64,000 nt of DNA from contig JANOSY010000073.1 in assembly GCA_031416075.1 (NCBI GenBank), positions 3,822 to 67,821 of the forward strand, read 5' to 3'. Positions 1,856 through 35,703 of this stretch are shown piece after piece; within the stretch, counting starts at the first letter, position 1, and every line of letters starts with the position of its first letter. Under the pieces are notes generated by a model, which saw only the letters and a program-made list of their open reading frames with translations, ran no database searches and was not told where the DNA came from. The position numbers and the translations under genes are program-made. This stretch comes from Candidatus Tenderia sp. GTDB lineage: Bacteria; Pseudomonadota; Gammaproteobacteria; Tenderiales; Tenderiaceae.

Positions 1856-2638
1856 ATGTCATCACATATCAAGAAACTGGCACCATCTATGAGTTATATG
1901 GATGGTGAGTTGCCTCTGTCAGTAAGGATTAATGCCTTGGGTGATATCAGTGAGATATTCAATCATCACGTTGGAAATTTCTTTCCATACGATTTTTCTG
2001 TTATTGGCAAGGCATATTTAAGTGGTAATAGCATCGAGGTTAGTGATGTTTTTTTGCAGCAGGGCGAACTTCACAATACACATACACGTTTAATCACGGA
2101 CTGTAATTCACTGCTATCTATCTGGAGAGTTATGCGGCAGGTCTGTCTGCTGGACCTAGGCCCATGTGGCTGTATTGGGAGTTTACGCAATAGTAATACT
2201 GACATTAACAAACGAAGCTTTATGGTTCATGGGCACGGCACAGATGAGTTCCACGTTATATTCATTATTCTCAGCACCCATCAACGATCTTGTAATAATA
2301 CTGACAAACAATTTCTTCACGATGTTATGCCTGCTTTAGCACAAACATTAGAACAACTATCTCAGGAGGGTGTAACTGCCGAAGAAAAACTGATCGCATA
2401 TGATCAATTGCAGACCTCACAATCTATACCAGAATTAATGTCACCACTATCAGCAAGAGAGATAGAGATAGTCAACTGTCTTGCTGAGGGAAAGACAAAT
2501 AAGGAGATTGCCCGAAACCTAGGCACAAGCCCGCACACAGTGAGGAATCAGGTATCTCGTTTATCCCAAAAAGTAGGAGCACGAAACCGTACCCAAATAG
2601 TCTCTTTAACAGCACTTCTCCAACAAAAAAAAATTTAG
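1856..2638 (+). CDS. LuxR-family transcriptional regulator. It has a C-terminal GerE/LuxR helix-turn-helix and an uncharacterised N-terminal domain.
   Basis: C-terminal EIEIVNCLAEGKTNKEIARNLGTSPHTVRNQVSRLSQKVG is a canonical LuxR-type HTH. There is an AT-rich upstream region with a GGAGG-like RBS before the ATG. Confidence 0.7.
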   Translation: MSSHIKKLAPSMSYMDGELPLSVRINALGDISEIFNHHVGNFFPYDFSVIGKAYLSGNSIEVSDVFLQQGELHNTHTRLITDCNSLLSIWRVMRQVCLLDLGPCGCIGSLRNSNTDINKRSFMVHGHGTDEFHVIFIILSTHQRSCNNTDKQFLHDVMPALAQTLEQLSQEGVTAEEKLIAYDQLQTSQSIPELMSPLSAREIEIVNCLAEGKTNKEIARNLGTSPHTVRNQVSRLSQKVGARNRTQIVSLTALLQQKKI

Positions 2639-2681: not shown

Positions 2682-3845
2682 TTAGAATCGCCACACCGCT
2701 TCCAATTTGATCCGGTCTAGCTCATCAAATGCAGAGGGTTCCGCGTTATGGTTCACATAAAACCAATCTACTTCCGTGCGCAATTCAAGATTCTTATCCC
2801 ACTCATAACCTAATTTAAGGGATAACCACTCTTCATCACCACCGATTTGATGCCACCAGAAGAGACGCATATTTCCACGATTTTGTAAAAACTTATATTG
2901 TGCTAGCAATGAGACATAGCGCTGGGAATAATTTGTCGTATTATATGAACCAGGCGTAGTAGCCTCCCAATAGAGTTGTGGGCTAAAGAAAAGATGGCCG
3001 TACTCCCAATCAAATCCAACAAGCGCTTGCTCTTGGCGTTGTGGTATGTATGAAAAATCCGTATTAAATGTATCCGTTTCGCTATACACCCATTCAGCAC
3101 GAATAATTCCCGGCCCTGCGGGCCAATCCGCACTTGCCCCCCATAAATATCGTCGTGCACTACCCATATCAAAATCACCATCTGAAAGAGGTTGCCATAA
3201 CGGTTCATGATTCCAACCATTTAGCCAATACAAACCAAGATCCAGCTCCCCCATCTGACGGCTCAGGCGTGCCCCAGTAACCCCATGCATTGATCTACCC
3301 TTAGGGGTCTCTAATGAGTGGTTAAAGGCGGGTTGCAATAGTGGAAAGCTCGGATCAACAGCATTGAGGCGTCGGTCAGGTCCAGCAAATAGCTGCCATT
3401 CCCACACACTCACTTGCCCATCCCATTGCACCATCCATAACGGGATTCGGGCATCCGCTGCAACCATATAAAAAGCATCCGGGTATCGCAATGGATTAAC
3501 AGTGTCTAACAAGCGAAAAGCATCCGCTCTCCCCCAAGCGATCTGTTGGCGGCCAATCCGTAATGTACTTTGATCAATCTGCCAGGTTAAATAAGCCTCG
3601 CGTAGTTCTATTTCTGAGTTTTCCCCCCAGGGAGTATCTATTGTTTCTGCACGTACACCAATATAGGCCCGGCCTCTAAGTAGATTCTCCCTCCAGTTCA
3701 GACGCAAATCACCACGCCCTGCCATCTCGTTTTTTTTTGCATCAGGATAATAGTCAAGGCCCGTGCGCATCTCAATATTAGCCTCTGAAGAAAAAGCGTG
3801 TGTTGCATATACTGCAATAAATATAACCAAAAACTTTAAAAACAT
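2682..3845 (-). CDS. Outer-membrane beta-barrel protein (putative porin/export channel).
   Basis: N-terminal signal peptide MFLKFLVIFIAVYATHAFS. Alternating amphipathic beta-strand pattern rich in W/Y/G. C-terminal ...LEAVWRF with a terminal aromatic typical of BAM-assembled barrels. Directly abuts the LolA-like gene. Confidence 0.5.
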   Translation of the reverse strand: MFLKFLVIFIAVYATHAFSSEANIEMRTGLDYYPDAKKNEMAGRGDLRLNWRENLLRGRAYIGVRAETIDTPWGENSEIELREAYLTWQIDQSTLRIGRQQIAWGRADAFRLLDTVNPLRYPDAFYMVAADARIPLWMVQWDGQVSVWEWQLFAGPDRRLNAVDPSFPLLQPAFNHSLETPKGRSMHGVTGARLSRQMGELDLGLYWLNGWNHEPLWQPLSDGDFDMGSARRYLWGASADWPAGPGIIRAEWVYSETDTFNTDFSYIPQRQEQALVGFDWEYGHLFFSPQLYWEATTPGSYNTTNYSQRYVSLLAQYKFLQNRGNMRLFWWHQIGGDEEWLSLKLGYEWDKNLELRTEVDWFYVNHNAEPSAFDELDRIKLEAVWRF

Positions 3846-4613
3846 TTAATCGGCACGTAAATAACGAGAAGAGACGTAATAATCGTCAAGCGTAATGTCC
3901 AACGCACGCTCTTTTATGGTTAATTGCGTCACTCTTTTATTAACCATATTTTCCATCTTAATCACTTGTGGCCTCCAATAATTACCCTCTCTTTTTATGC
4001 TACTGGCTGTCAATCTCTTTATTAATTCACCAGAATGGTCAAAATATTCGATAGCAACCGGATATTGAGAGGGTATGTCAATGTAGTATATCTTTTTAGA
4101 ATATCCAGATGCTTCACGCTCATGATTATTGTCAGGCTCCGCCAAAATAACAATACACCGGCTATCACCACACGCAGTCTCTTTTACAATACTGAATTTG
4201 TATAAATTAATTTTATAATCTTCAAAATCCTCATGCGTAAACTCTGTCCCCATAAACCAATTTGTTTTTTCACTACCAGATACCCGCCTAAATTTACGCG
4301 TTGCTGGCAAGTACAACCAAATATCATTGGCCTCCTTATTTCTGTCTTCAATTAACAGCCCCGTACCTTGTAAAATAGGAGGTGATATAAACTTTATAAG
4401 AGAGACCTCTTTGTCTGTCTCATGTTTATAAAAAAATTCCATATCACGCGACTGAACAAGTTTTTTATCTTGGTCAAAAATATCCATCTTAAATAAAGAT
4501 TTCTCTGTCAAACTCTTAGTGGTTTCTTCAGAACGTTCCATTAAATTACGTCCATCTTCTGAAAATGCAGGCATTGATGACATTAAAATTAAACACACAA
4601 TAATTATCTTCAT
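3846..4613 (-). CDS. Outer membrane lipoprotein-sorting (LolA-like) family periplasmic protein.
   Basis: Signal peptide MKIIIVCLILMSSMPAFS, about 255 aa of beta-rich sequence. Lies between the FtsX-type permease and the outer-membrane barrel gene with a 4-nt overlap. The LolA-like family call rests on size and context and on general recall of pfam17131-type proteins. Confidence 0.5.
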   Translation of the reverse strand: MKIIIVCLILMSSMPAFSEDGRNLMERSEETTKSLTEKSLFKMDIFDQDKKLVQSRDMEFFYKHETDKEVSLIKFISPPILQGTGLLIEDRNKEANDIWLYLPATRKFRRVSGSEKTNWFMGTEFTHEDFEDYKINLYKFSIVKETACGDSRCIVILAEPDNNHEREASGYSKKIYYIDIPSQYPVAIEYFDHSGELIKRLTASSIKREGNYWRPQVIKMENMVNKRVTQLTIKERALDITLDDYYVSSRYLRAD

Positions 4614-6982
4614 CCAAAACTTCTCCTACGTAACGTCTCTGACATTGTCATATTTTTGATCTTTTTAATAACAGGGATGGTAGTTACTGGTAATAAAGCC
4701 AGCGCCGGGATCATTACAAATATAGGATCACGCCAATCAAATAGTGTTGGCACATTAAACCATGCCTGACCCAATATACTATTTAGTATCATAGCCAGAA
4801 TATATCCCATCGGAAGCGATAAAATAATACCAATAACACCCAGAATACTCACTTCGACCTTTATCATTTTTGACAGTGTCTTCTGCTCAAATCCCAGTAT
4901 TTCAAGCAAAACAAAATCAGACTCGCGTTCCATGAAGGTAAAAGAGCTACTGGTAAACAGAAACAGTAGTGCAACACCAATACTAAAAGCGGCAGCAAGG
5001 TAGACAATACCCGCAATCTCTTTTAAGTGAGCGATTACCTCCGCAACAAGCTCTGAACGTACAGTGACCTTCCCTACTCGACTATCTTGATAAAACGCTG
5101 AACTAAGATTGCTATTTTGATTAGCAGAGACCAATACTCCTGTGTTCTGATCATTAAGATCTAACCAGTGTCGTGCTGCATTGATGGTTGTAAATGTTTC
5201 ACCCGGTAATGCACCAGAGAACACCCCCACTAAAACAGCCTCCACATCACCTTGTTTTCCCTCTACGGTGAGTGATTCACCAATGGTTATACCCAGGCTT
5301 GCGGCTAACTTTCTCTCCATAACCACTGAATTGGTATCAGAAGAGTTCAATCCTCTACCCTCTAATATTATCAAGGATCGTAAGCTATCGTCCGGAGACA
5401 CCCCAATTAGCAATCCACTTTCACGTTTATTATTCACAGCAAACCTGGCAGGACCACGGACAAACAGATCTAAACTCTGAACACCTGAAATATTATTCAG
5501 ATCCTCCAACTCGTCATCCCACACAGGTGATAAAAAGTCGACGGCATACTCCCAGTTATCCTTAGAGAATCCATTAACAATCGCCCCCTGAAAAGAGCTT
5601 AATGCAACAAAATAGGCCAGCGCTGGTGCCAATGCCAGAGCCACCGAGACAACCGTCATTAAACTTGCGTAACGGCGACGGAGTATTGATTGTATCGAAT
5701 AACGCCACACTGGAGAGCTCAATTTTGATGCCGAGGCACCGTGATCAGGAGCGGGAGACGGTGGGGAGTCACGCACAGCGCTGAGCGGTGTGATTTTCAA
5801 GGCCTGGCGCAATGGATAAGAGACCCCTGCTATACAGGCAAAGATAAGACCGAAAAAGGCCCACACAATATGTGGTGAAAAGAGTACTAAATTGGGTGAA
5901 GGTAAACCAATCGCGTTGGCATACTCCATTCCAAAACCGTACAGCATAACAAAAGATATACCAATACCACTTAATGTCCCACCAATAGCAATCACAGATA
6001 CCGGTACAAATACCCGTAATGCCATAGATCCTTTGCCATACCCTAATGCAGAGAACACACCTAGCTGTTGACGTTGCCGTGCGACCCATTGGTATAAGAG
6101 AAAAAATAGAATAGTCACCGCACACACAGCAAAAATTGCAACAATAGCGGGGGTAAATATTCTAAATGCACCTAAGTCGACATTAAGAAACATATGGCCA
6201 AATTGGTGTGATAGAGGAATATCCTCATCAATAGAGAGTTTGCTTTTTGACCGATTCAAAACCTCTTTTGCAATATTTTCAGGAAGATCATTAGCAGAGA
6301 GATTGCCCGTAAACAAAACACTATTGACAAGATCAAAACCCAAACGTTGATGCATTAATGTACGTGGGGCAAAAATAACACCTAAAGAGCCTTTTGATGG
6401 TAAGAAAAAATTAGGATTTGCGCCATCAACGAGGTGTTCTACACTAATAGCGATACCCCGTACTGTTAGGTTAAAGGTAGCTTTACCAATATTAAGGTGT
6501 AATTCATCCCCAATTTTATAGTCATAGTGGCGCGCTAAATTTCGATCTATAACAATTTCAGAGGGTTTTTCATTATCCAAATCCTCACCCTCTGTGATCA
6601 ATAATTTATTAATCTTTGCATCAGCTGTAACGGATACCATTAGACTAGAGAGTGGCATACCATCTTTAAGCACAATATTTCCCGGTAATAATAGTCTCTG
6701 TTCAATACTCTCTATACCTGAAATATCGCTCCAATTCGGAATGTTTTTACTATCTTCTGGCGTAAATCTTATTTCATGGGCAGCAATATTTGCTTGTTGA
6801 TAAAGACCATCTCGAAAAGAGAAGAGACTATCGATGGCAGAATATAATCCGGCATACATTCCAAAACCGGCCCCCATAATTAACATTACCGCAACAGTTC
6901 GCCAACGCATTCCCCATAATTCACGTATCGATGAACGGACTGGCAATAATCCACTCATGCTGGCACACATGCGTGAACACAC
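4610..6982 (-). CDS. ABC transporter permease, FtsX/MacB-like, with two permease modules. The true start is probably a few codons inside, because the listed start overlaps the ATPase gene by 28 nt.
   Basis: 790 aa with two groups of TM helices separated by large soluble domains, typical of duplicated FtsX-family permeases. Directly downstream of, and overlapping, an ABC ATPase. Confidence 0.7.
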   Translation of the reverse strand: MCSRMCASMSGLLPVRSSIRELWGMRWRTVAVMLIMGAGFGMYAGLYSAIDSLFSFRDGLYQQANIAAHEIRFTPEDSKNIPNWSDISGIESIEQRLLLPGNIVLKDGMPLSSLMVSVTADAKINKLLITEGEDLDNEKPSEIVIDRNLARHYDYKIGDELHLNIGKATFNLTVRGIAISVEHLVDGANPNFFLPSKGSLGVIFAPRTLMHQRLGFDLVNSVLFTGNLSANDLPENIAKEVLNRSKSKLSIDEDIPLSHQFGHMFLNVDLGAFRIFTPAIVAIFAVCAVTILFFLLYQWVARQRQQLGVFSALGYGKGSMALRVFVPVSVIAIGGTLSGIGISFVMLYGFGMEYANAIGLPSPNLVLFSPHIVWAFFGLIFACIAGVSYPLRQALKITPLSAVRDSPPSPAPDHGASASKLSSPVWRYSIQSILRRRYASLMTVVSVALALAPALAYFVALSSFQGAIVNGFSKDNWEYAVDFLSPVWDDELEDLNNISGVQSLDLFVRGPARFAVNNKRESGLLIGVSPDDSLRSLIILEGRGLNSSDTNSVVMERKLAASLGITIGESLTVEGKQGDVEAVLVGVFSGALPGETFTTINAARHWLDLNDQNTGVLVSANQNSNLSSAFYQDSRVGKVTVRSELVAEVIAHLKEIAGIVYLAAAFSIGVALLFLFTSSSFTFMERESDFVLLEILGFEQKTLSKMIKVEVSILGVIGIILSLPMGYILAMILNSILGQAWFNVPTLFDWRDPIFVMIPALALLPVTTIPVIKKIKNMTMSETLRRRSFG

Positions 6983-7650
6983 CCATCAATCAATGTTAGA
7001 GAACGATCTGTATGTCGCGCAATTTCTGGGTTATGGGTAACAATAATCAATGCCGACCCCGCTTTACGGCACTGATCAAGCAGTACTTTAAGCACCTGCT
7101 CTCCAGTATTGGGGTCTAGATTTCCGGTGGGTTCATCAGCCAGAATTAACGGTGAATTCTTCACAATTGCTCGTGCTATGGCAACCCTCTGTTGTTGTCC
7201 ACCAGACAGTTGTGATGGAAATGAGCGCTCATAATTAGACAATCCTACAAGGTCCAGGCTATTTAAGACCTTATCACGGGCCCCTTTAGGTAATGGTCCA
7301 GAGGCATCCAAACCCGTCAGTACATTTTCAAATACAGTTAACGATGAAATTAAGTTATAAAACTGAAATACAAATCCAACATTGTGGCGTCGATGGTCGG
7401 CTAAGTCTTGTGACTTCATATCAAGAAGCGCCCCATTAATATGCAACGTGCCTGAATCAGCCGTCTCAATTCCACCTAAGATGCTCAACAATGTTGACTT
7501 TCCAGTTCCCGACACACCTAATAACGCAATAGATTCGCCACTAGACATCGATAGATTGACATCTGACAATACCGTAGTTTCAGTAACCCCCTGAAAGTAT
7601 GATTTTTTAATTCCGGATGCCTGTATAAATGAAGATGTAGTACCTGTCAT
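6955..7650 (-). CDS. ABC transporter ATP-binding protein (LolD/MacB-type ATPase).
   Basis: Walker [13 protein letters not shown] signature [14 protein letters not shown], Walker [12 protein letters not shown]. Confidence 0.85.
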
Positions 7651-8138
7651 GATAGGGACTCATACTGTTCTGTTATCGTAGAGATAATTTTCCATTCCAC
7701 ACTCACCTTAATATCAATAGCCGGCTTTAGGGATGAGCTAACAGTGCAGTAATTTTGAAAAATGTCCTCACAACGTTGTCTACGCGGATTATCGACAGTT
7801 AAAATAGGCTTAAGTATCACTTCTACACGATTTATTCTGGGATTTCCTTCAGCATTAGGTATAACAACGGCAGTGGCTTCTGTTTCGATATTGACTATTT
7901 TAAGATGCGCACGTCTACTTGTTTCCAGTAAACTTGCACTTAAACAATGAGCCACTGCTGTGGCCAATAGTGCAGGTGTTGCCGGTCCTGATGCATCTCC
8001 TACTGGATCTGGCTCATCAGAAACATAAGGTAATCCATGAGGTTTTTGATCTTCACTGGCCTGGGTAACAAAACGATAACGATCCAGATATTTCATTGAA
8101 ATATCAAACCTTCGCTCTTGTTGATCACGCATTTCCAT
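7647..8138 (-). CDS. OsmC/Ohr family peroxiredoxin-like protein.
   Basis: ATPALLATAVAHCLSASL... pattern characteristic of the OsmC fold. Its stop overlaps the ABC ATPase start (ATGA). Confidence 0.7.
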   Translation of the reverse strand: MEMRDQQERRFDISMKYLDRYRFVTQASEDQKPHGLPYVSDEPDPVGDASGPATPALLATAVAHCLSASLLETSRRAHLKIVNIETEATAVVIPNAEGNPRINRVEVILKPILTVDNPRRQRCEDIFQNYCTVSSSLKPAIDIKVSVEWKIISTITEQYESLS

Positions 8139-8172
8139 ATATATCTCCTAACAATTCAATATTACTATTCTA

Positions 8173-8859
8173 TTACTCTGCAACAACTTTCCGTATGAAA
8201 TTAAATCTATTCTCTAACTTATAACCAATAAAACTAATGATCACACCCACTACAGCAAAACCTGCAGCCATCACTAAATAAGAGATTAACATTTTATTTG
8301 GATTACGCTCGGCCGCTATCAATCCAGACTGCATTAAATCAATAACACCTACAACATAGATAACAGCTGTATCTTTAAAAAGAGAAACAGCAAAACTTGC
8401 GCTTGCAGGTGTCATTCGACGTAACCCCTGAGGTATCACAACACTAATAAAAACTTGACTCTTTGATAACCCCGTTGCTTGTGCTGCTTCAACTTCACCT
8501 GAAGGTACTGAGGAAAAACCAGCACGAACAATTTCAGCTTGATACGCTGATGAATAGAGTGTTAATGCTATAAATGCACTCAATAATGGCGGTATATTGA
8601 TGCCAATCATGATAGGTAGTAAAAAATGGCACCAGAAGAGCAAAAGTATCAATGGTGTTGATCTTAGTACTTCAATAAATGCTGTGGCACAAAAACCGCT
8701 TATTCTCCCGCCTGCCATTCTCAATAGTGCAAGCGGAACCGCAAACATGAATCCCATTACAAAACAAGATACTGCTAATCCAATATTGATTAGAAGTCCC
8801 CCAGGGGGTCCATCCGGCCATCCGCCGATCATCATGAAACTCAACCAATCAAGACTCAT
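8173..8859 (-). CDS. Polar amino acid ABC transporter permease (HisM/GlnP family).
   Basis: Multi-TM protein, EAA-like loop region ...AQATGLSKSQVFISVVIPQGLRRM. Paired with a second permease and ATPase. Confidence 0.8.
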   Translation of the reverse strand: MSLDWLSFMMIGGWPDGPPGGLLINIGLAVSCFVMGFMFAVPLALLRMAGGRISGFCATAFIEVLRSTPLILLLFWCHFLLPIMIGINIPPLLSAFIALTLYSSAYQAEIVRAGFSSVPSGEVEAAQATGLSKSQVFISVVIPQGLRRMTPASASFAVSLFKDTAVIYVVGVIDLMQSGLIAAERNPNKMLISYLVMAAGFAVVGVIISFIGYKLENRFNFIRKVVAE

Positions 8860-9611
8860 GTTACTGGTACCGATAGAGATGGTTTATTGAGTACATCTTT
8901 AGTACTGTATCGACATAAATTGAGTCTGTTTTCCATTTTATGTGATACAGAACCCAATATTAAAGAGATGACAATATAAAAAATAGTTGCTACAAGCGTT
9001 GCCTCTAACCCTCTAAAACTTAACGACTCTATCTGCTGTGTTGCCCATGTCAGCTCAGTGACACCAATAACTATACATAGTGATGAATTTTTAAAATTAT
9101 GAATGGTTCTATTGGCTAATGCGGGAAGAACAATTCGAATTGCAAGGGGCAATAAACAACATATCCACTGTTGTTTTGATGTTAGTCCACAGCTTTTTGC
9201 CGCCTCTCTTTCACCAGAAGAGATGGCAAGTACGCCATTTCTTAATATATCTGATACATACGTTCCATTATCGATACTTAATGCAACTATTCCGGCTAAG
9301 AGTGCATAACTTCCCCAGCCATGCAAAATACTGCCTAGTGAATCAGGCAGTATCTCTGGAAAAACAAAATAAAAAAACAGTATCCAAAAAACTGCCGGGA
9401 TATGTCGTGCGACGCCGACCCATGCACTGCAGGGCCAGACAAAATATTTCACCGGTGATAGGCGCCCTGAAGCAATAACAATGCCTATCAGTATTGATAA
9501 AATAGTGCTAAAAAAGGCGATAATAAACGTGTGTGCAACGCCATAAAGTAGATAATCCCGATACTCATGACGGGCAATAACAGACCAGTCAAATTCGTAT
9601 GTAAACTCCAT
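8856..9611 (-). CDS. Polar amino acid ABC transporter permease (HisQ/GlnP family).
   Basis: Multi-TM, ...EAAKSCGLTSKQQWICCLLPLAIRIVLPAL... EAA motif. 4-nt overlap with the downstream permease. Confidence 0.8.
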   Translation of the reverse strand: MEFTYEFDWSVIARHEYRDYLLYGVAHTFIIAFFSTILSILIGIVIASGRLSPVKYFVWPCSAWVGVARHIPAVFWILFFYFVFPEILPDSLGSILHGWGSYALLAGIVALSIDNGTYVSDILRNGVLAISSGEREAAKSCGLTSKQQWICCLLPLAIRIVLPALANRTIHNFKNSSLCIVIGVTELTWATQQIESLSFRGLEATLVATIFYIVISLILGSVSHKMENRLNLCRYSTKDVLNKPSLSVPVT

Positions 9612-9620
9612 ATTATCTAC

Positions 9621-10361
9621 TTATACCATCTCTAACATCGATGATTGACGTACACTGTTTGCCAATCTTCCCACCCGATCAGTCGATTGACAGGCCAGAG
9701 TATTACAATCAACTTCAGTTAATGTTCCATTGTTGAGCATGAAAAAACGATTCCCTGTTGCACACGCAAAATCAAGATCATGGGTTACCACTATCTGCGC
9801 TATATTGAGATCTGCAAGTGATTTAATATTTTCTGATACTTCATCACGTAGACGCCAATCCAGTGCTGATGTAGGCTCGTCAAATAACATCACATCCGGG
9901 GACATGGCTAAACACCTTACAATCGCAATTCTCTGTTTTTCTCCACCAGAAAGGCTGTCTGGATATATATCTTTTCTATGAGAAACCGAAAATTTATCCA
10001 TTAGGTCAATAGCAATATTGATGGCTAATTTTTTAGTCAGTTTTTTCACCCTAATTAGCGGTAATGTTATATTTTCCAGTGCGGTCAAGTGGGAAAACAG
10101 ATTGCAATGTTGAAAAACAATACCTACACGTGACCGCAACTCACAAAGATTGATTCCTTCATCATAAAGAGATACTCCATCAATCATAATATCCCCGGAG
10201 TCGATAACCTCCATTCTATTAATCGTCCTTAATAGTGTTGTTTTGCCACTGCCGCTTGGGCCGCATATCATTGCAACCTCTCCACGCTGCAATGATAGCG
10301 TCACACTATTTAGGATTGTTTTTCCTGAGATTATCTTCCCCACTGATTTCAACTCAATCAT
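9621..10361 (-). CDS. Polar amino acid ABC transporter ATP-binding protein.
   Basis: Walker A GPSGSGKTT, signature LSGGEKQRIAIVRCLA, Walker B MLFDEPTSALD. Confidence 0.85.
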   Translation of the reverse strand: MIELKSVGKIISGKTILNSVTLSLQRGEVAMICGPSGSGKTTLLRTINRMEVIDSGDIMIDGVSLYDEGINLCELRSRVGIVFQHCNLFSHLTALENITLPLIRVKKLTKKLAINIAIDLMDKFSVSHRKDIYPDSLSGGEKQRIAIVRCLAMSPDVMLFDEPTSALDWRLRDEVSENIKSLADLNIAQIVVTHDLDFACATGNRFFMLNNGTLTEVDCNTLACQSTDRVGRLANSVRQSSMLEMV

Positions 10362-10379
10362 TGAAAGCTCCTCGAGTTA

Positions 10380-11252
10380 TTAATCGGGTAATACATAGGC
10401 CATATCACCAAACGTATCTGAAGGTAAGCGCGGGCGAGCATTATGTGGCATCGGATAGAGCCCTTTTTCACCAAACCATTTCTGGTATATTCTTTCGTAA
10501 CTACCATCTTTAATCATGTCTTGTAATACAAAGCTCACCGCATCCCGCCATTTACTGTCATTCGGTGGAACACCTATGCCATAAAGACCTGGACTAAAGC
10601 CGGTGCCTACAACCTCAAACTCTGAGGCTGACTCTCCAGCCAATGCCGCTATAATAGGGCTGTCTTGACAAAACACATCTATCTTCCCTTGCTTTAATGC
10701 CAAAATCCCCTCGGCATTTTTTTGAAATGCGATTATCTTTGGTTCTAATTTGCTGTATTTCATGATCTCCTGAGGTGCCGCTGTATAAGCATTTGACCCC
10801 TGATTAACACCAATTTTTTTTCCTGCCAGATCGGATATTTTCTTAAATTCATTTTTTCTCGCATAAAATATCTTGGCCGTCCAAAGATAAGGTGGTTCAG
10901 CATAATCTATCTGCTCTTCACGGCCCCGTGTTTGTGATAGATTTGAAATTGTCATATCAATCTTTCGGTTAGATAGATAGGCTATCCGTGTCTTATTGTT
11001 GACGACAACAAGCTCTACTTTCACACCGAGTTGTTTTCCTATTTCGTTACCTAAATCGACATCGAAACCTGTCCAGTTTCCTTTTTCGTCAATAAAGTTC
11101 ATCGGAGGTGTATCATTACCCGTTCCTATGCGAATAGTGTTTGATTTTTTTACTTGATCAAAAATTGATTCTGCATTAACAATACTTGAGTTAATCACAC
11201 AAGAGAAAAGGCCTATAAATAAAGTGTTTTTAAATAGCTGGTTCAATTTCAT
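10380..11252 (-). CDS. Periplasmic polar amino-acid-binding protein (SBP_bac_3 family).
   Basis: Signal peptide MKLNQLFKNTLFIGLFSCVINSSIVNA. Typical two-lobed binding-protein motifs (GFDVDLGNEIGKQLG...). Its 5' end overlaps the stop of the upstream reductase gene. Confidence 0.8.
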   Translation of the reverse strand: MKLNQLFKNTLFIGLFSCVINSSIVNAESIFDQVKKSNTIRIGTGNDTPPMNFIDEKGNWTGFDVDLGNEIGKQLGVKVELVVVNNKTRIAYLSNRKIDMTISNLSQTRGREEQIDYAEPPYLWTAKIFYARKNEFKKISDLAGKKIGVNQGSNAYTAAPQEIMKYSKLEPKIIAFQKNAEGILALKQGKIDVFCQDSPIIAALAGESASEFEVVGTGFSPGLYGIGVPPNDSKWRDAVSFVLQDMIKDGSYERIYQKWFGEKGLYPMPHNARPRLPSDTFGDMAYVLPD

Positions 11253-12432
11253 AGTGATTTATCTCTTTAATATTATTTTTCGGAAACTCTTTGCTAAACT
11301 TTTCTTTATAAAGAGCCATTTCTTTAGAGTTTTCAATAAATAGATTTTGACATCGCTCTACGCTATCCCCTGTTCCGTTATAAAAAACAAGACCTTTTTC
11401 TGATAAAGGCCCCATCCACTCTCTGCAAAAATTCCATTGGTGCGTCCCTATTTTTAGATTTACCTGTGCAAACGTAAGGTATGCACGTTGACGGATATCA
11501 ATCGATTTAAGATCAACATCCTCAAATTTTGAATAGTAGTGGACACGATGTGGTCTGACTATTTTTATCCACATCTCCCATAAATTTCTCATACTTGGCG
11601 AACTATTATTGTCTGATACCAAGTTACATATTGATGCATCAGGCAACCAGCGATGCGCATATAAAAATGACTCTTGAAACATATCTTGGTGTATTAAATT
11701 TAGTGGTTGATTGGGTGCCACAGTATGCATATCTGAATGGTATCTATCAGTCATCAACCGGGCTAATCCCATCCACTGTTGGTACAATCCGTAACGCTTA
11801 CCCGAGTATCGACCACTCTCCCAATCGCCGATCAAAATAGAGGGTCTAAGAATCAGATAAGGCAATCCACTCTGGGCAACCAACCATTCAGCCTTTCTTT
11901 TTGATGATGTGTAAGAAGTTGGGTCTTTTTCGGGGTCATCATGTAATATCTCTTTAACGTCTCCACTAATATAACCAGAGCTATAGGCTGTAGAAATAAA
12001 TGTAAAGCGCCGTACCCTCAAACGTTTACCGATAGAGAGCATCCATTTTGTTAATTGGATGTTAACCACGTCCAAATCGGCTTCATTGAAATAATCCAGG
12101 CATCCGGCACAGTGCACTATTTCATCTATCTCATAGGGTGTTAATGCCTCCTCAAAATCATCGTCACCAATGTCACTACTACCATTCCAGGGGATAATTT
12201 TTACATTACCATAAACACTCTCTAAAGATTCTCCAAATGCTGATAGCTCATTGTTAAGACGAAACAAAAAATTGTCTATGGATGATGATGCGCGTAATGG
12301 GATAACTATATTCTCTACTCCTGATGACAATAGTTTGGCAGCAATCAGAGTGCCTAGATAACCGCTCCCACCTGTTAGCAGCACTGTATCTGGACGAAAC
12401 TCTTTTGACCTTAGGTCATTAATTGTTTTCAT
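11230..12432 (-). CDS. NAD(P)-dependent thioester-reductase-type SDR (NAD_binding_4, male-sterility-domain-like). It may form aldehyde or alcohol from an acyl/aminoacyl thioester.
   Basis: Rossmann motif VLLTGGSGYLGTLIAAKL near the N-terminus and catalytic YTSSKRKAE (YxxxK). The 400-aa size fits stand-alone thioester reductase domains. Confidence 0.6.
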   Translation of the reverse strand: MKTINDLRSKEFRPDTVLLTGGSGYLGTLIAAKLLSSGVENIVIPLRASSSIDNFLFRLNNELSAFGESLESVYGNVKIIPWNGSSDIGDDDFEEALTPYEIDEIVHCAGCLDYFNEADLDVVNIQLTKWMLSIGKRLRVRRFTFISTAYSSGYISGDVKEILHDDPEKDPTSYTSSKRKAEWLVAQSGLPYLILRPSILIGDWESGRYSGKRYGLYQQWMGLARLMTDRYHSDMHTVAPNQPLNLIHQDMFQESFLYAHRWLPDASICNLVSDNNSSPSMRNLWEMWIKIVRPHRVHYYSKFEDVDLKSIDIRQRAYLTFAQVNLKIGTHQWNFCREWMGPLSEKGLVFYNGTGDSVERCQNLFIENSKEMALYKEKFSKEFPKNNIKEINHYEIEPAI

Positions 12433-12434
12433 CG

Positions 12435-12875
12435 TTACGCCACCTCTTCAGAAGGTAACAATTTCTTTTCAATTTTCTCTGGCTCTGGAATTCCGCCATA
12501 AAATGCAATTTTTCTATTAATAATTAATATAGGAAATATATTAAAACCCTGTGTCGATACAAGGGACTGTATCTGTTCAACCAGTCGATGCTCACTTGGT
12601 TCAAGATCACCACTCTTTATCTTTGACAGCGCTTTTCTGGCATCTGTAATTGAAATTGTCATCACTGAGATATTGGATCCGGAATTCTTTAAGGCAATAT
12701 CAACATTGTTTTTTAGCTTTTCATCACTCTGTGATGCTAATGGGGAGCAACATTTTGCAGAGACAATACCGATCCCGCCTTCATACATTACGGATCTTAA
12801 GTGAATCAGTGCATCCCCACTGTTGCTGTTCCCGCAAAAAAGTTTACATAGCGAATCAAACATATAACCCTCCAT
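12435..12875 (-). CDS. Thioredoxin-fold protein (redox-active disulfide protein-like).
   Basis: Paired cysteines (KCCSP). C-terminal ...FPILIINRKIAFYGGIPE resembles the cis-Pro/beta-strand/GG region of small thioredoxin_3-type proteins. Tightly packed between the permease and reductase with 1-2 nt gaps. Confidence 0.45.
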   Translation of the reverse strand: MEGYMFDSLCKLFCGNSNSGDALIHLRSVMYEGGIGIVSAKCCSPLASQSDEKLKNNVDIALKNSGSNISVMTISITDARKALSKIKSGDLEPSEHRLVEQIQSLVSTQGFNIFPILIINRKIAFYGGIPEPEKIEKKLLPSEEVA

Positions 12876-12876
12876 T

Positions 12877-13800
12877 TCAAAAATTAGGAATTGTCCACTG
12901 CGCGAGAAAACCCAATATCACAGCAGCTGTTACTACAGCGACAATATGAGCAACTATTAGTGGCCAACGAAACAGTCTTAAGAGCAGTATCATTTCAGGC
13001 AAGCTTGTTCCTGCACCAGAGATTAACAAGGCAACCAATGGTCCAGGATCCATCCCTTTCTCTATCAGTGCATAGCCGATAGGCACAATTGCCATAGGCG
13101 ATATGTATAGAGGAACAGCAATCAAGGCAACCAGTGGGATCAAGAAGTAGGGAGGAAAAGTATGATCCAGGTCTGTTAGTATGTTCTCTGGCATATAGCC
13201 GTGTATTAACCCGCCAATAATAATGCCTATCACTAGATAAGGCATGATCTGCCGTAATTCCATACGCGCCGCTCCCCATGAAAAAGAGAGCGCGGTACGA
13301 AATTTTGGGCGAGATACCTCTCCCGTGGAATCCCCCATATAACCTTCTGGAACAGCTACCGTGCCTAAAGGGCGCAGAAAACGTATCATGCCTGTGCGCT
13401 CTACAAGGATGCCGGCTAAAATGGAGAGAAGTGCTGCTGACAAAACAAATATCACAGCACTGCCAAACCCTGGACCACTGACCAATAATATAATGACACC
13501 TTCATTAATCACGGGGGATGAGATCAGAAAAGTAAAACATGAAGCCAAACCAATTTTTGACCTCAACATCCCACTTAGCACAGGTACCGTGGAACATGAA
13601 CAGAAAGGGGTAACGGCCCCACCAATGGCGGCTAATGTTGCGCCGTTCCAAGATGATGCGTTGGCAAGTTTTACCTCTATTGAGCGCCCTAACGAAAATT
13701 GCTGCGCCAGAAATATCAACATTGATATACCCAAAAACAGTATGACCAACATTAAGCCATCCAAAAGAATGAAATTTATAACGTCAACAACTTTATCCAT
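12877..13800 (-). CDS. DUF318/ArsP-type permease with the TPFCSCS thiol motif.
   Basis: Motif AVTPFCSCSTVPVLSG matches the conserved TPFcSCSxxP signature recalled for ArsP organoarsenical efflux permeases and DUF318 two-repeat permeases. About 8 TM segments. Confidence 0.65.
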   Translation of the reverse strand: MDKVVDVINFILLDGLMLVILFLGISMLIFLAQQFSLGRSIEVKLANASSWNGATLAAIGGAVTPFCSCSTVPVLSGMLRSKIGLASCFTFLISSPVINEGVIILLVSGPGFGSAVIFVLSAALLSILAGILVERTGMIRFLRPLGTVAVPEGYMGDSTGEVSRPKFRTALSFSWGAARMELRQIMPYLVIGIIIGGLIHGYMPENILTDLDHTFPPYFLIPLVALIAVPLYISPMAIVPIGYALIEKGMDPGPLVALLISGAGTSLPEMILLLRLFRWPLIVAHIVAVVTAAVILGFLAQWTIPNF

Positions 13801-13850
13801 AACAGCGCTCTTGAACAGGTATTGTTTTTTGTATGTTAAAAATTAGATTA

Positions 13851-14702
13851 TTAACAACACGATTCAGTGGTGGCACTGTTTTTTGTTTGCGCCAAACGTA
13901 AATCGGCAGATGGCATTCCACCATAACTGGACATGCTTGCTATCAGTGGTGTTGTGACTTTTACATCAAACCCAACTTCATCTAACGTTTCAATATAGGC
14001 ATCAAGCGCTTCTATACGAATATCTTCGATGTCTGTACGTATGCTATCCAAACCAATATCACCACAATTCACGCCAAGCTCACCACAAAGAGAGTGGCAG
14101 CTGGTGCTAATCATGCTGAAAAGTTCTGGCATGACACGATGGTGTGCCCAGACAAGGCTGTCATGAACACCATCATAGTCACTGGAGAGCATCTCTTTAA
14201 GCCGTCTGATACCGATGCCAAGATGTTCAATTTCATCGCTCAATATGGACTTTGCAAGGTCGCGTGTATCCGGGTCTGTATCGCGCTGAAGAATTTTATA
14301 CAACACAATGGCCATTGTCTCTGTCATCAGGTCTTGAATAATTAGGCATGCGGCCAGATCCTTTTTTGCGACTGCTGCAGAGAACTGTTTGCGTATATGC
14401 AACCACTGAGGTTCGACAATTCGTTGTTCAACAGGAAAGTCGAGTCTGCGCCCAAGGCTGGAGAGCATTTTGATATGTTTGGTCTCTTCAAAGGCCTGTT
14501 TTGCAGTCTCAATTTTTGAGTTGGTATCTTTCCATAAGGGCACCATCTCGGAATAGTTCTCTACAGCCATAATCTCGCCAGCTACTGCATTTGAGACTAT
14601 GTAGGCCATCAAGTCATAATATCTTTGGTCTTTACCGTGCCGCTGATTGCGCATCTCTTTGACTTCATTTCTATCCAATTCGTTAATATTCACACTATTC
14701 AT
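13851..14702 (-). CDS. Ferritin-like di-iron carboxylate protein (putative oxygenase/oxidase). First gene of the long minus-strand cluster.
   Basis: Two E...ExxH-type segments (AGEIMAVENYSEM... and DEIEHLGIG) spaced as in di-iron four-helix-bundle enzymes. No signal peptide. Confidence 0.5.
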   Translation of the reverse strand: MNSVNINELDRNEVKEMRNQRHGKDQRYYDLMAYIVSNAVAGEIMAVENYSEMVPLWKDTNSKIETAKQAFEETKHIKMLSSLGRRLDFPVEQRIVEPQWLHIRKQFSAAVAKKDLAACLIIQDLMTETMAIVLYKILQRDTDPDTRDLAKSILSDEIEHLGIGIRRLKEMLSSDYDGVHDSLVWAHHRVMPELFSMISTSCHSLCGELGVNCGDIGLDSIRTDIEDIRIEALDAYIETLDEVGFDVKVTTPLIASMSSYGGMPSADLRLAQTKNSATTESCC

Positions 14703-15229
14703 TTCTCTATCTCCGTTATGGGATGCCTGGAAATGTTGGTTCCCCGATTTTTTTGAGACCCGATAATTTGGGCGTGATACATACTCTCATCTGTCAGAGA
14801 TCTGTTAAATAGTACAAATGTACCCATCTGAATATTTATAGTGCCGCGGACTGATGCTATCGACAAACAACATGATGTTTGTAAGAGAAGTATGATTTTT
14901 TTCAATATTAAACTTTAATCCTTCCAATACCTCCATTGACTTGATAATGATCGCCCTCCTTAACCAAAGAAAATACTTTACGGACATTAACTGCCATATG
15001 GCCGCTCTCTTCTGGTTTTTTTATCAAACGGGTATTAGTCTCAGCACCACCTATTGCAGCACCAATACCGTGTCACTTATGTTTTTTCTCATATGTAGTG
15101 GCTGAGGTATATTGGAACTAGCCGCAGTAATCGCGACGACGATAAGATTCCAGTGACCTAACATATTGTATTTATACCTATTAATAGTGAATCAAGGTTC
15201 TGTTAGTTGACAACATCCGCCACCTCACT

Positions 15230-15445
15230 TACAGTGCGCTCCTGCTTCAGGTGTCCTAAGGGCTATCGCCTAATGGATGAAACGGGAAGCCGGTGCGCTC
15301 TGGTAATAACCAGCGCTAACCCGGCACTGCCCCCGCAACGGTAAACGAGTTTAAGGTTCTGCTTACGCCACTGTGTTCTGCACGGGAAGGCGCAAACCTT
15401 GGGAAAAGACCCCCACTCGTGAGTCCGGAGACCGGCCTGCGGCAT
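15230..15445 (+). ncRNA. Cobalamin (adenosylcobalamin) riboswitch in the btuB leader.
   Basis: Conserved core gaaacGGGAAgccGGTGcg...ccGGCACTGCCCCCGCAACGGTAAacg. B12 box GCCACTG at 15367..15373. Downstream gagtCCGGAGACCGGCC element. Sits immediately upstream of a TonB-dependent receptor gene and cob biosynthesis genes. Confidence 0.85.
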
Positions 15446-15586
15446 AAGTTCGGCATTGCGGAGGGCGATGCACCGGCATGTGTGGCCTATTTTTCACCCC
15501 TCCACCCTTGCTATCACTCCTCCTCCATTTGCCATATGGCCTTTAATTATTCAGTTCGTGCCCCGATGTGCACGAAGGAGAGAGAT

Positions 15587-17416: not shown

Positions 17417-17500
17417 ATATTGGCACAGTACCCTCCTCTGTTTAGGGAGGGTGTTGTGATCACATTGAAACACACTTACTTTTAAAACAGGCGCGATACT

Positions 17501-18082
17501 ATGTTAACGCTCTCTACCCGACATCAAATTTTTATTGGTCTGTCGCTATTGTTGTTGATGATCACCACCCGTGGTCACCACTTTGCAACACTGGAGCATC
17601 TGCCAAGTGCTTCATGGGCGGTGTTTCTGCTGGCGGGACTCTATCTGCGCCCGGTGTGGGTTTTTCCTGCGCTGTTAGCGTTGGCCGGTTCGCTCGACTA
17701 TGCAGCGATCACCTGGGGTGGTGTCTCTAATTTTTGCGCCAGCCCGGCGTATCCGATGTTACTGCCCGCCTACGGTTCACTCTGGCTGGCGGGGCGCTGG
17801 TATGCCAAACAGTACCATGCTCACTGGAGTACACTTGTACCTGCATCGCTGGCCATTTTATTGGGTGCAACGGTGTGTGAGCTCTTCTCCAGTGGGGGTT
17901 TCTATTTTCTATCAGGCCATTTTGTCGATCCAACACTGACTGAGTTTGGGGCGCGGTTTATTCAATATTTTCCCGGTTCCTTACAATCACTGCTGTTCTA
18001 CATCACCATCGCTGCTGTGATACATCTGCTGTTGGTATCGATACAGAACATCACTACCAAACATAATAGAACCGGGGGTTAA
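17501..18082 (+). CDS. Small polytopic membrane protein of unknown function embedded in the B12 regulon.
   Basis: 193 aa with about 5-6 hydrophobic helices and no recognisable motif. Located between btuB and cobO in the same orientation. Confidence 0.45.
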   Translation: MLTLSTRHQIFIGLSLLLLMITTRGHHFATLEHLPSASWAVFLLAGLYLRPVWVFPALLALAGSLDYAAITWGGVSNFCASPAYPMLLPAYGSLWLAGRWYAKQYHAHWSTLVPASLAILLGATVCELFSSGGFYFLSGHFVDPTLTEFGARFIQYFPGSLQSLLFYITIAAVIHLLLVSIQNITTKHNRTGG

Positions 18083-18086
18083 TGCC

Positions 18087-23351: not shown

Positions 23352-23365
23352 ACAGAAGAGATAAT

Positions 23366-25037: not shown

Positions 25038-25153
25038 AAAAATCGTATCATACCAAAGTATCAGGTGTGTAACAGCGGTTATTAATATCGGTAGTCAGGG
25101 GGTATAGCAGAGAGAAAATTCACCATTTGAACCAATTTTATAATCGAAATCAG

Positions 25154-26128: not shown

Positions 26129-26219
26129 CGCATCTATCGTTTTTATTATAAAACTCTAATAAAAACAAATCCCCTCACCTACAAGGTTTTCGGCAACATC
26201 GGCAAAGCCTTAAGCCACA

Positions 26220-29353: not shown

Positions 29354-29641
29354 GGGTCATAGTTACAGCCCAATCATATATTCAGGCTGATCCCCCCTGT
29401 AAAATAGATAAAACCAATAAGAGCTTATGGTATGTATCGGCATTGGAAGGCCAGCCATGAACACAGGATTACAATAATTCACAACTAACTAAGTATGGAT
29501 GGAGTATTGTTTATAAAATAGTACGGATATTATGAATAGAAAATATTTAATCTTTAATAGCCAAAAACTTCACTGAAAAAATTATATTCTTAAATGCAAA
29601 TTAAGTCACCACCGGAAAATCCGGGGGACTGCCTTATTTAT

Positions 29642-35539: not shown

Positions 35540-35703
35540 TTTTAATGCGGACTATCTGTTTATCTGAGACTACCTTTAAACAACAAAATTCTGCCGCCTA
35601 TAAACGAACAAAATCAGCACAGGGCTGGTATTACAGTCCGGCTTGTTGTTCTCATCATCACGAGGATAATCTCAATAAAAACATTATTGCCCGACTCCAC
35701 CCG

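Follow-up and report, generated by a model that had tools for sequence, protein, structure and literature searches.

A thirteen-gene cluster of Candidatus Tenderia couples a homologue of cyanobacterial aldehyde-deformylating oxygenase to a thioester-type reductase, two transport systems and ars-type proteins

Background

In a 64 kb stretch of DNA from the gammaproteobacterium Candidatus Tenderia sp. (64,000 nucleotides of contig JANOSY010000073.1, assembly GCA_031416075.1; hereafter the window), thirteen minus-strand genes (2682..14702) and a convergent gene for a LuxR-type regulator make up, judging from their layout, composition and conservation, one horizontally acquired functional unit. 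At its core the cluster encodes a predicted enzyme pair, a di-iron oxygenase homologous to cyanobacterial aldehyde-deformylating oxygenase (ADO) and a short-chain dehydrogenase/reductase (SDR) of the thioester-reductase type, surrounded by an importer, an exporter and proteins related to those of arsenic metabolism. All modules come from known families, and the core is similar to the pathway formed in cyanobacteria by acyl-ACP reductase (AAR; ACP, acyl carrier protein) together with ADO. We propose, as a tentative reading towards which we lean, that the product made and exported by the cluster is an organo-arsenic lipid derived from a fatty acid.

In reviews ADO is called exclusive to cyanobacteria (PMC9118987, PMC5699528). 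In the literature that we surveyed, proteins like the present oxygenase carry only the automatic name 'fatty aldehyde decarbonylase', and we found no paper that links the arsenite methyltransferase ArsM with an ADO-like protein, or that describes this cluster or a non-cyanobacterial ADO-type pathway. The cluster had been singled out by a model that saw only the nucleotide sequence and its open reading frames (ORFs); this sequence-only reading proposed a dedicated system that imports a precursor, modifies it and exports a lipidated or hydrophobic product. In the analysis reported here the idea of one unit stood and a hydrophobic exported product remained plausible, whereas two parts of the proposal, the likeness of the exporter to LolCDE and a 68-residue leader peptide, were not supported.

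Results

Layout, conservation and composition of the cluster

The ORF map bore out the packing of thirteen consecutive minus-strand genes between 2682 and 14702, for which junctions of −23 to +50 nt had been given; from the first gene to the last they measure +50, +1, +2, −23, +18, +9, −4, +34, −4, −28 (or −4), −4 and 0 nt. The longest-ORF rule produced the −28 junction as an artefact: the gene for the double-FtsX permease most likely starts at the ATG at 6958 rather than at the GTG at 6982, because an in-frame start there creates an ATGA overlap (6955-6958) and the resulting product of 782 residues fits the homologues, which measure 781-786 residues. With this one the ATGA overlaps number five, since those already named at 7647-7650, 8856-8859 and 4610-4613 were all read in the sequence, as was a further one at 14699-14702. 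A consensus scan found 16 terminator-like hairpins against 9.9 expected, every one of them intragenic; the intergenic gaps of the block hold none. Promoter-like sites numbered 35 versus 40 expected from shuffled sequences; both scans are uninformative, and no sigma-70 consensus was found on the cluster strand of 14703..15231.

With the oxygenase as probe, 57 genome loci were fetched, together with contigs from protein look-ups. Their stop-to-stop ORFs were labelled by BLASTP against the window proteins and a Pseudomonas variant of the cluster under a 40% coverage rule; the flanks taken were 10 kb per genome locus, which places the barrel and the regulator beyond view in most of them, and E-values from small local searches refer to small databases. 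At least 13 further genomes or contigs from Beta- and Gammaproteobacteria (among them L004/L014, L009, L010, L012, L013, L015, L019 and L065-L067) show the gene order of the window, at 40-88% protein identity, and this contradicts the possibility, left by the sequence-only reading, that the sub-modules are juxtaposed only in this genome. We call this order type A; it occurs in Chromatiaceae, Azohydromonas, Rhizobacter, Pelomonas, Aquabacterium, Azoarcus, Denitromonas and three metagenome contigs, and the importer is its best conserved accessory module (56-69% identity). Type B, with about 18 genome loci from Pseudomonas, Lysobacteraceae and Roseateles, carries on one side the oxygenase, the permease, the small protein, the SDR, a 354-residue protein and a LuxR-type regulator, and on the divergent side an importer like PstSCAB, an acyl-CoA ligase, an MMPL pump to which a LolA-like domain is fused, and a 414-residue protein. 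Type C (Acidobacteriota, Sphingomonas, Myxococcales and others) has two oxygenase paralogues and the SDR. In type D (Enterovibrio, Grimontia and a metagenome-assembled genome (MAG) of Rhodobacterales) permease, importer, OsmC, oxygenase, SDR, MMPL pump and LolA-like protein follow one another in this order, and in type E (Ectothiorhodospiraceae) importer and OsmC are divergent from ArsM, oxygenase, SDR and a MacB-type pump. The module set occurs in other orders in Vibrionaceae, Rhodobacterales, Azospirillum and Ectothiorhodospiraceae. L029, a contig assigned to a cyanobacterial MAG (Synechococcus sp. UW140), also carries a complete type-B cluster whose proteins are 53-78% identical to those of Pseudomonas; either the contig was binned wrongly or the cluster was transferred laterally.

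Across the 57 loci the SDR stands beside the oxygenase in 55, an ABC importer in 38 and an ars-type gene in 47. The exporter is found in 35 loci, in every one of which the importer is also present, and OsmC in 22, each with an importer of the SBP_bac_3 type. The transport modules are exchangeable: the importer is swapped between versions for phosphate- or phosphonate-type systems while the oxygenase stays 52-66% identical, and MacB-type and MMPL/HAE3-type pumps interchange with the LolA-like partner retained.

The base composition of the block was compared with that of the rest of the window, a check that had been suggested earlier. The GC content of third codon positions (GC3) is 0.26-0.43 in the block, the LuxR gene and the gene at 343-1671, against 0.46-0.55 in the btuB/cob genes and 0.65-0.71 in the genes at 40-64 kb; in other genomes the GC content of the cluster equals that of its flanks. 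The block and the LuxR gene therefore have the marks of a low-GC island that was acquired laterally in this lineage. The window DNA is 93.5% identical to L008, a contig of the uncultured gammaproteobacterium MAG ND3_Bin_17, which has the same arrangement. We regard the thirteen genes and the convergent LuxR gene as one predicted functional unit because of the tight junctions, the five ATGA overlaps, the conserved order and the re-association of the same modules in types D and E.

The oxygenase and its reductase partner

The first gene of the block (13851..14702, minus strand) encodes a ferritin-fold protein of 283 residues that scores 71 bits against PF11266, above the cut-off of 28, and 73.4 bits against the equivalog model TIGR04059, under its cut-off of 222.65. 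A profile search of the PDB with this protein matched ADO exclusively (best E-value 2.5e-16), and the top 26 Foldseek matches of its AlphaFold2 model (mean pLDDT confidence score 82) are all ADO, with target-normalised template-modelling scores of 0.81-0.88. The identity to ADO is 21-26%. The ligands E43, E73, H76, E128, E157 and H160 are invariant in the 18 sequences compared, and their spacing equals that of E32, E60, H63, E115, E144 and H147 of SeADO. Sequence and model thus identify the protein as a predicted homologue of cyanobacterial ADO with an intact di-iron site; the domain call 'di-iron protein' of the sequence-only reading was right, and the homology to ADO and the seemingly obligate pairing with a thioester reductase had escaped it. 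The family is compact, with 30 representatives at E<=1e-30 among 1.84 billion clusters of 50% identity, and it is found in Proteobacteria, Acidobacteriota, Actinobacteria and others, at least six phyla in total.

The oxygenase differs from ADO in several conserved positions. D124, beside the ligand E128, is invariant, whereas ADO has Ala there, and C202, C206 and C213 (C-x3-C-x6-C), which lie in a region modelled with lower confidence, are invariant in the family. C119 aligns with a Cys of ADO in the alignment of residues 119-213. Together C202/C206/C213, C119 and D124 might provide an additional site for a metal, an Fe-S cluster or a metalloid. The C-terminal tail of about 40 residues is disordered and ends in TESCC; a Cys-Cys pair falls within the last 15 residues at 38 of the 39 non-type-B loci and at none of the 18 type-B loci. 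The idea that this tail is an acyl carrier replacing phosphopantetheine was dropped because in an Acidobacteriota MAG (L038) the oxygenase keeps its tail though a true ACP adjoins it.

The SDR (11230..12432, minus strand; 400 residues) matches PF07993 with 70.5 bits, and the motifs TGxxGxxG (TGGSGYLG) and YxxxK (YTSSK) can be read in its translation. It scores 70 bits against TIGR01746, whose cut-off is 213, and its nearest solved structures are the terminal reductase domains of the nonribosomal peptide synthetases (NRPS) MxaA and AusA. The window has neither a carrier nor a ligase in cis with this gene. Evidence on its substrate comes from L038, in which positions 9015-17447 hold, back to back, an oxygenase paralogue, the Cys-Cys-tailed oxygenase, the SDR, an ACP (PP-binding), an acyl-AMP ligase and a fatty-acid desaturase; L041 and L044 have ligase and desaturase genes homologous to those of L038. 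A tblastn search for ACP or ArsD homologues across all loci returned only the ACP of L038 and weak matches to tails. The array of L038 is ended by a convergent gene for a lipoxygenase of 777 residues, an enzyme that is uncommon in bacteria. Since acyl-AMP ligase, ACP and desaturase adjoin the oxygenase/SDR pair in Acidobacteriota, we infer that the core chemistry would lead from a fatty acid through a thioester to an aldehyde, followed by an ADO-type cleavage of C1.

The pair invites comparison with AAR/ADO, with which it shares the fold and the six-ligand spacing of the oxygenase and the two-gene logic of an aldehyde-making reductase and an oxygenase. In contrast to that pathway, the neighbour of the oxygenase in 55 of the 57 loci is an SDR with the NAD_binding_4 domain, a thioester reductase of the NRPS type and not AAR; the oxygenase has gained the invariant C202, C206 and C213 and the Cys-Cys tail, and transporters and ars-type proteins accompany it. 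Carboxylic acid reductases and the A-T-R modules of NRPS follow the same logic as the separate ligase, ACP and SDR of L038, whereas the SDR of the window is free-standing, with no ligase or carrier in cis and a TIGR01746 score under the cut-off.

Proteins related to arsenic metabolism

A bona fide ArsM is fused or adjacent to the oxygenase at nine loci. The family representatives P0143, P0146 and P0148 consist of an N-terminal ArsM fused to the oxygenase, with the Cys-Cys pair at the end. The best matches of P0143 among solved structures are arsenite methyltransferases (E about 1e-28 versus 1e-15 for the next methyltransferase), and its motifs GCGNP, SNC and GC.GGA align in register with them. 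The cut-off of NF008823 (263 bits) is passed by P0143 (281.7 bits) and by the ArsM proteins of L042 (279.6) and L052 (266.2); those of L016 and L017 score 247 and 250 bits, under the cut-off. In the ArsM proteins of the sister loci the motifs GCGNP, SNC and C.AGA and the three As(III)-binding cysteines are present. Free-standing ArsM adjoins the oxygenase in L042, L016 and L017 and lies 2.7 kb upstream of it in L052. L016 has the architecture of the window, except that an ArsM between oxygenase and SDR replaces the ArsP-type permease and the small protein, and across the 57 loci a bona fide ArsM and the permease are mutually exclusive.

The 354-residue protein of type B was seen in Pseudomonas brassicacearum (L002 13470-14534) and has 17 orthologues; its C-terminal CC-x5-CC has the spacing of the end of E. 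coli ArsD. Models of ArsM are its only family matches (best 2.8e-16), it has no Pfam match, its S-adenosylmethionine (SAM) motif is degenerate (WWGGAYS) and the CC-x5-CC is invariant. Possibly it represents a methyltransferase fold that has become a metalloid-binding partner. The occurrence of the Cys-Cys tail is complementary, given that all 18 ArsM-like partners of type B end in the pair that the 18 type-B oxygenases lack. At the end of E. coli ArsD stand the vicinal pairs Cys112-113 and Cys119-120, and both are implicated in the sensing of metalloids (PMC4562236); the ArsD sequence used for this comparison was verified only for residues 1-109 and, as to the Cys pairs, through that paper.

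In the window the second gene (12877..13800, minus strand) encodes a permease of 307 residues of the ArsP_1/DUF318 family (PF03773, 136.4 bits versus a cut-off of 32.3) with the sequence TPFCSCS, and the PFCSC/CSC motif is kept in all 38 cluster-linked homologues. It scores 78.9 bits against the SO_0444 model and 75.2 bits against SaoE, under the cut-off in both cases. ArsP exports methylarsenite (PMC6205960).

The third gene (12435..12875, minus strand) encodes a small protein of 146 residues that has no family match over threshold. Weak matches to Thioredoxin_3 and to ArsD were found in 11 of 14 members each (best E-values 1.7e-4 and 2.7e-4), and S39, C42, C43, D51, F114, P115, G127, G128 and P130 are invariant, the vicinal pair C42-C43 being kept in 28 of 28 homologues. 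By these resemblances the protein probably has a thioredoxin/ArsD fold. Membership in the ArsD family was considered and rejected, given that the window protein matches with an E-value of 0.19 and the best member, at 2.7e-4, falls under the gathering score. An hhalign comparison with ArsD gave a probability of 13.7% over 38 columns; as for the Cys12-Cys13-Cys18 site of ArsD, the vicinal pair is invariant and a third conserved Cys was not found. The single-sequence model of the small protein (pLDDT 41) is unusable, and a word-indexed homologue search with it returned only itself. No ArsA-like gene was found among the scanned window proteins or the homology-labelled genes of related loci. For the thirteen genes the domain calls of the sequence-only reading were right, with the qualification that 'thioredoxin-like', its term for this protein, corresponds to sub-threshold matches to Thioredoxin_3 and ArsD; the tie of permease, small protein and Cys-Cys tail to arsenic biochemistry had gone unseen.

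The importers of the sister clusters bear on the same subject. That of an actinobacterial locus has a PhnD-like binding protein and that of type B is PstSCAB-like, and by analogy such oxyanion importers would fit arsenate or methylarsonate too.

Import, peroxide removal and export

The fifth gene (10380..11252, minus strand) encodes a binding protein of 290 residues with a signal peptide and 127 bits against PF00497 (SBP_bac_3). Its best solved relatives bind Gln, Arg or Lys, and the Arg, Ser and Asp with which they hold the alpha-carboxylate and alpha-amino groups are matched in the alignment. It is followed by a GlnQ/TcyN-like ATPase (9621..10361; ABC_tran 113 bits; GlnQ 225 bits, under the cut-off) and two permeases (8856..9611 and 8173..8859), both matching BPD_transp_1 and HEQRo_perm_3TM and all on the minus strand. 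With an SBP_bac_3 protein, two HEQRo permeases, an ATPase and the alpha-amino-acid-binding residues, the system is predicted to be a polar amino acid importer. A cystine/cysteine redox shuttle formed by importer, permease, thioredoxin-like protein and OsmC was considered and rejected, given that the binding protein is nearer to Gln/Arg/Lys binders than to cystine binders and that type B has a Pst-like importer. Phosphonate catabolism or methylphosphonate synthesis, suggested by the Pst- and PhnD-like importers, was also rejected; the lipid enzymes and ArsM explain more.

The OsmC/Ohr protein (7647..8138, minus strand; 163 residues) scores 32.7 bits against PF02566, whose cut-off is 27.5, and aligns to the Ohr structure 3eer with both catalytic cysteines in register. 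It is a probable organic-hydroperoxide reductase.

Export would depend on four proteins. The ATPase (6955..7650, minus strand; ABC_tran) is of the MacB/LolD/YbbA type and scores 174-195 bits against the models of LolD, DevA, MacB and YbbA, all under their cut-offs. The permease (4610..6958, minus strand) has two FtsX and two MacB_PCD stretches (68 and 52 bits) and the architecture of a type VII ABC transporter with the periplasmic core of MacB. The resemblance to LolCDE seen in the sequence-only reading turned out to be distant, since the LolC and LolE models gave 21.6 and 18.5 bits versus cut-offs of 473 and 439. The third protein (3846..4613, minus strand; 255 residues) is a periplasmic LolA_like/TP_0789-like carrier with a signal peptide and no lipobox, which scores 152.6 bits against PF17131 (cut-off 30) and 40.5 bits against DUF1329; in type B the LolA-like domain forms part of the MMPL pump, and in type D it has a gene of its own. 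The last gene (2682..3845, minus strand) encodes a DUF1302-related outer-membrane beta-barrel of 387 residues, with a signal peptide and a terminal Phe (VWRF); its 37 bits against PF06980 exceed the cut-off of 23.2, and the match covers only positions 141-364 of the 541 of the profile. Three fetched homologues of the barrel (42-58% identity) each close the same thirteen-gene array. At the place where an outer-membrane partner would be expected, other loci have conserved proteins of 414-449 residues that match no family (L054 3441-4790 and L002 187-1431, both on the minus strand), the former with orthologues in all type D loci; possibly they are unrecognised barrels equivalent to the DUF1302-like protein of the window.

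A hydrophobic cargo is plausible because the MacB-type and MMPL-type pumps interchange while the LolA-like partner stays. Modules of DUF1302, DUF1329 and resistance-nodulation-division (RND) proteins include the monoterpene efflux system AmeABCD (PMC6394551; bioRxiv 072470), in which a pump of the inner membrane, a periplasmic protein of the LolA superfamily and a DUF1302 barrel likewise handle apolar compounds; types B and D use an HAE3/MMPL pump, as in the RND modules. The window differs from AmeABCD in that its pump is a MacB-type ABC transporter and not RND, its barrel is short with a partial DUF1302, and a BNR/Ycf48-like protein is missing. With LolCDE-LolA-LolB and MacAB-TolC the window shares the FtsX/MacB_PCD architecture, a LolD-like ATPase and, by analogy, a handover to a carrier of the LolA fold. 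Unlike in the Lol system, the two FtsX units lie in one chain of 782 residues and the carrier belongs to PF17131 and not to canonical LolA; unlike in MacAB-TolC, there is no MacA adaptor or TolC and the ATPase is encoded by a separate gene.

The regulator and the flanking regions

The LuxR/GerE-family gene (1856..2638, plus strand), convergent to the block, encodes 260 residues with a GerE domain (58.6 bits) and has an island-like GC3 of 0.36. Because residues 46-250 (about 200, extending beyond the helix-turn-helix (HTH)) are 25-33% identical to the regulators that close the Pseudomonas/Lysobacter version of the cluster, type B, with E-values down to 4e-31, the protein probably is the cognate regulator. 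In family scans only the C-terminal GerE HTH was detected, with no match to an autoinducer-binding domain and none for the N-terminal 190 residues except a partial match to EpsA.

An ORF of 68 codons (14699..14905) that overlaps the first gene had been put forward as a leader or secreted peptide. It starts with TTG and matches no family; a relative with a flanking di-iron protein of 100% identity retains it at only 80%, and it is missing upstream of all other clusters compared. With this lack of conservation the candidate is not supported.

The upstream control region (14703..15231) is common to the cluster and the divergent, riboswitch-controlled btuB. On the divergent btuB side, the 716-nt upstream region has a cobalamin riboswitch at 15232-15454 (RF00174, plus strand, 103.6 bits) that precedes the gene for a TonB-dependent B12 receptor (TIGR01779, 667 bits). 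Within the control region, 14975-15181 is the sole part of the DNA shared with L008 that fails to align. From the B12 receptor a run of plus-strand genes extends over 15419-24430, including those for an amidotransferase of the CobB/CobQ type and a class I/II aminotransferase; with a GC content of 0.50-0.55 these genes lie between the island and the 40-64 kb region. Upstream of the LuxR gene, 343-1671 (plus strand) encodes a protein with DUF4874 (239 bits) and DUF4832 (168 bits) and a cluster-like GC3 of 0.40. A second low-GC block (about 25000-40000, minus strand; GC 0.38-0.45) holds genes for a GGDEF response regulator, a HAMP histidine kinase, a FecR/Glucodextran_B protein, a DsbA-like protein, a surface protein of 1965 residues (Big_1, Invasin_D3, SdrD_B, OmpA) and two unknown proteins of about 200 residues; it is possibly another acquired island.

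Discussion

In the synthesis of an organo-arsenic lipid, which we put forward as a tentative reading, the SDR would reduce a fatty acyl thioester to the fatty aldehyde, and the oxygenase with O2 would attack this aldehyde in the manner of ADO, C1 leaving as formate. The Cys-Cys tail, the Cys-Cys small protein and the Cys-Ser-Cys permease would deliver to the active site a thiophilic trivalent metalloid, for which (methyl)arsenic(III) is the likeliest candidate, so that the product would be a hydrophobic organo-arsenic lipid and not a plain alkane. OsmC would clear peroxide by-products, a role made plausible by the fact that H2O2 is an inhibitory by-product of ADO (PMC9118987). The MacB-type pump, the LolA-like carrier and the DUF1302-like barrel would carry the hydrophobic product outward across the envelope, and the ABC importer would supply a polar co-substrate resembling an alpha-amino acid, or a metalloid carrier. 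What we infer in this scheme are all substrates and products, the direction in which the ArsP-type permease works, the identity of the ligand as arsenic in the ArsM-less version of the window and the role of the importer.

Several observations weigh against a role of arsenic. The cluster of the window has no ArsM, ArsC, ArsR or Acr3, and the rest of the 64 kb gave a single methyltransferase-like match, weak and generic; the regulator is of the LuxR type and not ArsR. The similarity of the small protein to ArsD is under every threshold, the family of the permease also includes Cu/Zn exporters, and vicinal cysteines can also suit redox chemistry or other soft metals. Type C has lipid genes and no ars-type gene in cis, and the importer of the window looks like an ordinary alpha-amino-acid importer, which the arsenic model leaves unexplained.

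A narrower form of the same proposal, possible though doubtful, is that the oxygenase family is the missing synthase of arsenic-containing hydrocarbons (AsHC), with bacteria as one source. The reaction of ADO passes via an alkyl radical, and As(III) traps carbon radicals in the radical-SAM synthesis of arsenosugars and arsinothricin. After the C1 cut, the Cn-1 alkyl radical would be trapped by (di)methyl-As(III) held on the Cys-Cys tail; the arsenical would come from ArsM in some versions of the cluster and through the ArsP-type permease and the Cys-Cys chaperone in window-like versions, and the resulting dimethylarsinoyl-alkane would be expelled by a pump of the MacB or MMPL type together with LolA-like carrier and barrel. 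The commonest natural AsHC, AsHC332, AsHC360 and AsHC388, have alkyl chains of C15, C17 and C19, as calculation from their masses gives. Such odd chains, one carbon under the C16, C18 and C20 fatty acids, would be explained if an ADO-type cut precedes the trapping of arsenic. The three compounds are named by these masses in PMC11009773.

Known systems offer partial parallels. With ars systems the cluster shares an ArsP_1 permease with the Cys motif of its family, ArsD-like vicinal cysteines in small protein and tails, and a true ArsM in sister clusters; in contrast, the window lacks ArsR, ArsC, ArsA, ArsB and Acr3, its small protein falls outside the ArsD family, and, unlike resistance operons, it is embedded in a lipid-type pathway with an importer, a logic that looks biosynthetic. 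The closest parallel in concept is the selenocysteine-assisted organometallic (SAO) locus, a computational prediction (Haft, bioRxiv 10.1101/2022.07.06.499078), which also combines an importer, a CSC permease (SaoE), a thioredoxin-like protein with extra Cys and a Cys-Cys-COOH protein, and in which, as here, the permease occurs only with the importer. There is no homology beyond the permease family, however, and the SAO system is anaerobic, rich in selenoproteins and provided with a MerB-like lyase, whereas the present one would depend on O2 and has lipid enzymes. The radical-SAM enzymes that form As-C bonds (ArsS for arsenosugars, ArsL for arsinothricin) embody the same concept, a carbon radical trapped by As(III) with ArsM as partner; no radical-SAM enzyme is found here, and the radical would come from an ADO-type C1-C2 scission. 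For arsQML see PMC8552651.

The alternatives differ in how much of the cluster they account for. At a rather low level of likelihood, the cluster would be a pathway for a plain hydrocarbon or another lipid derived from a fatty aldehyde, with dedicated export, in which SDR and oxygenase would convert acyl thioesters to an alkane or alkene; a thiol module for electron supply and peroxide control, composed of the Cys-Cys tail, the thioredoxin-like protein, the Cys-Ser-Cys permease and OsmC, would take the place of the ferredoxin system of cyanobacterial ADO, and the ArsM relatives of sister clusters would have a side activity or another substrate. Redox-active C-terminal Cys pairs are known from class I ribonucleotide reductase and insect thioredoxin reductase, OsmC retains both catalytic cysteines, and the fold and di-iron ligands of the oxygenase are those of ADO, an enzyme that needs four external electrons per turnover and for which H2O2 is inhibitory (PMC9118987). 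L038, with its ACP, acyl-AMP ligase and desaturase beside the pair and no ars-type gene, fits such a pathway. It leaves unexplained, however, the ArsM fusions with an intact As(III)-binding Cys triad, the swap of ArsM against ArsP-type permease and small protein in one slot, the Pst-like and PhnD-like importers, and the need of a thiol relay for a membrane permease.

It is unlikely that the cluster is an island for the detoxification or turnover of organoarsenicals, in which the di-iron enzyme would oxidise or cleave trivalent methylated arsenicals held on the Cys-Cys tail, with an outcome like that of ArsH or ArsI, the ArsP-type permease and the envelope pump would expel the products, and SDR and importer would be accessory. 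The permease belongs to the ArsP family and has the CSC motif, ArsM is adjacent in sister clusters, ArsI holds its substrate by a vicinal Cys pair, and a low-GC island is typical of resistance cargo; yet the pairing with the SDR in 55 of 57 loci and the acyl-activating genes, ACP and desaturase of sister clusters have no role in detoxification, the LolA-like protein and the barrel imply that the cargo is like a lipid, a resistance system with its own importer would be odd, and ArsR is missing.

More improbable still is that the imported amino acid is the precursor, converted by reductase and oxygenase (for example through an amino aldehyde) into a lipidated or hydrophobic derivative or signal that is exported under the control of LuxR. 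The retained alpha-amino-acid-binding residues, the good conservation of the importer in type A (56-69%), the invariant D124 beside E128 where ADO has Ala, and the linked regulator speak for it. No enzyme of the cluster, however, can activate an amino acid to a thioester, the importer is swapped elsewhere for a phosphate- or phosphonate-type system while the oxygenase is still 52-66% identical, and sister clusters contain fatty-acid enzymes. Finally, we dismiss as most improbable that unrelated operons merely lie head to tail in this genome: the family of every module also works alone elsewhere and the gaps of 50 and 34 nt could hold internal promoters, but order and content are kept across two proteobacterial classes at 40-88% identity, the modules re-associate in other orders and GC3 is uniformly low over the block.

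Conclusions

The oxygenase family described here is a sister family to ADO, compact, highly conserved and present in at least six phyla, and always with a predicted aldehyde-forming reductase other than AAR. These comparisons point to a second branch of ADO-type chemistry, either older or laterally spreading. The origin of AsHC and arsenic fatty acids, toxic lipids found throughout marine food webs and in human food, is debated between 'biosynthetic infidelity' and a genetically controlled pathway (PMC11009773). The clusters provide a concrete candidate for a route to AsHC in the cultured bacteria Pseudomonas brassicacearum, Enterovibrio norvegicus and Denitromonas iodatirespirans, and if the reading as an AsHC synthase is true, the system would be categorically new. 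Even if arsenic is wrong, the cluster would represent the first ADO-type pathway outside cyanobacteria that brings its own export machinery, and as such would be of interest for hydrocarbon bioproduction.

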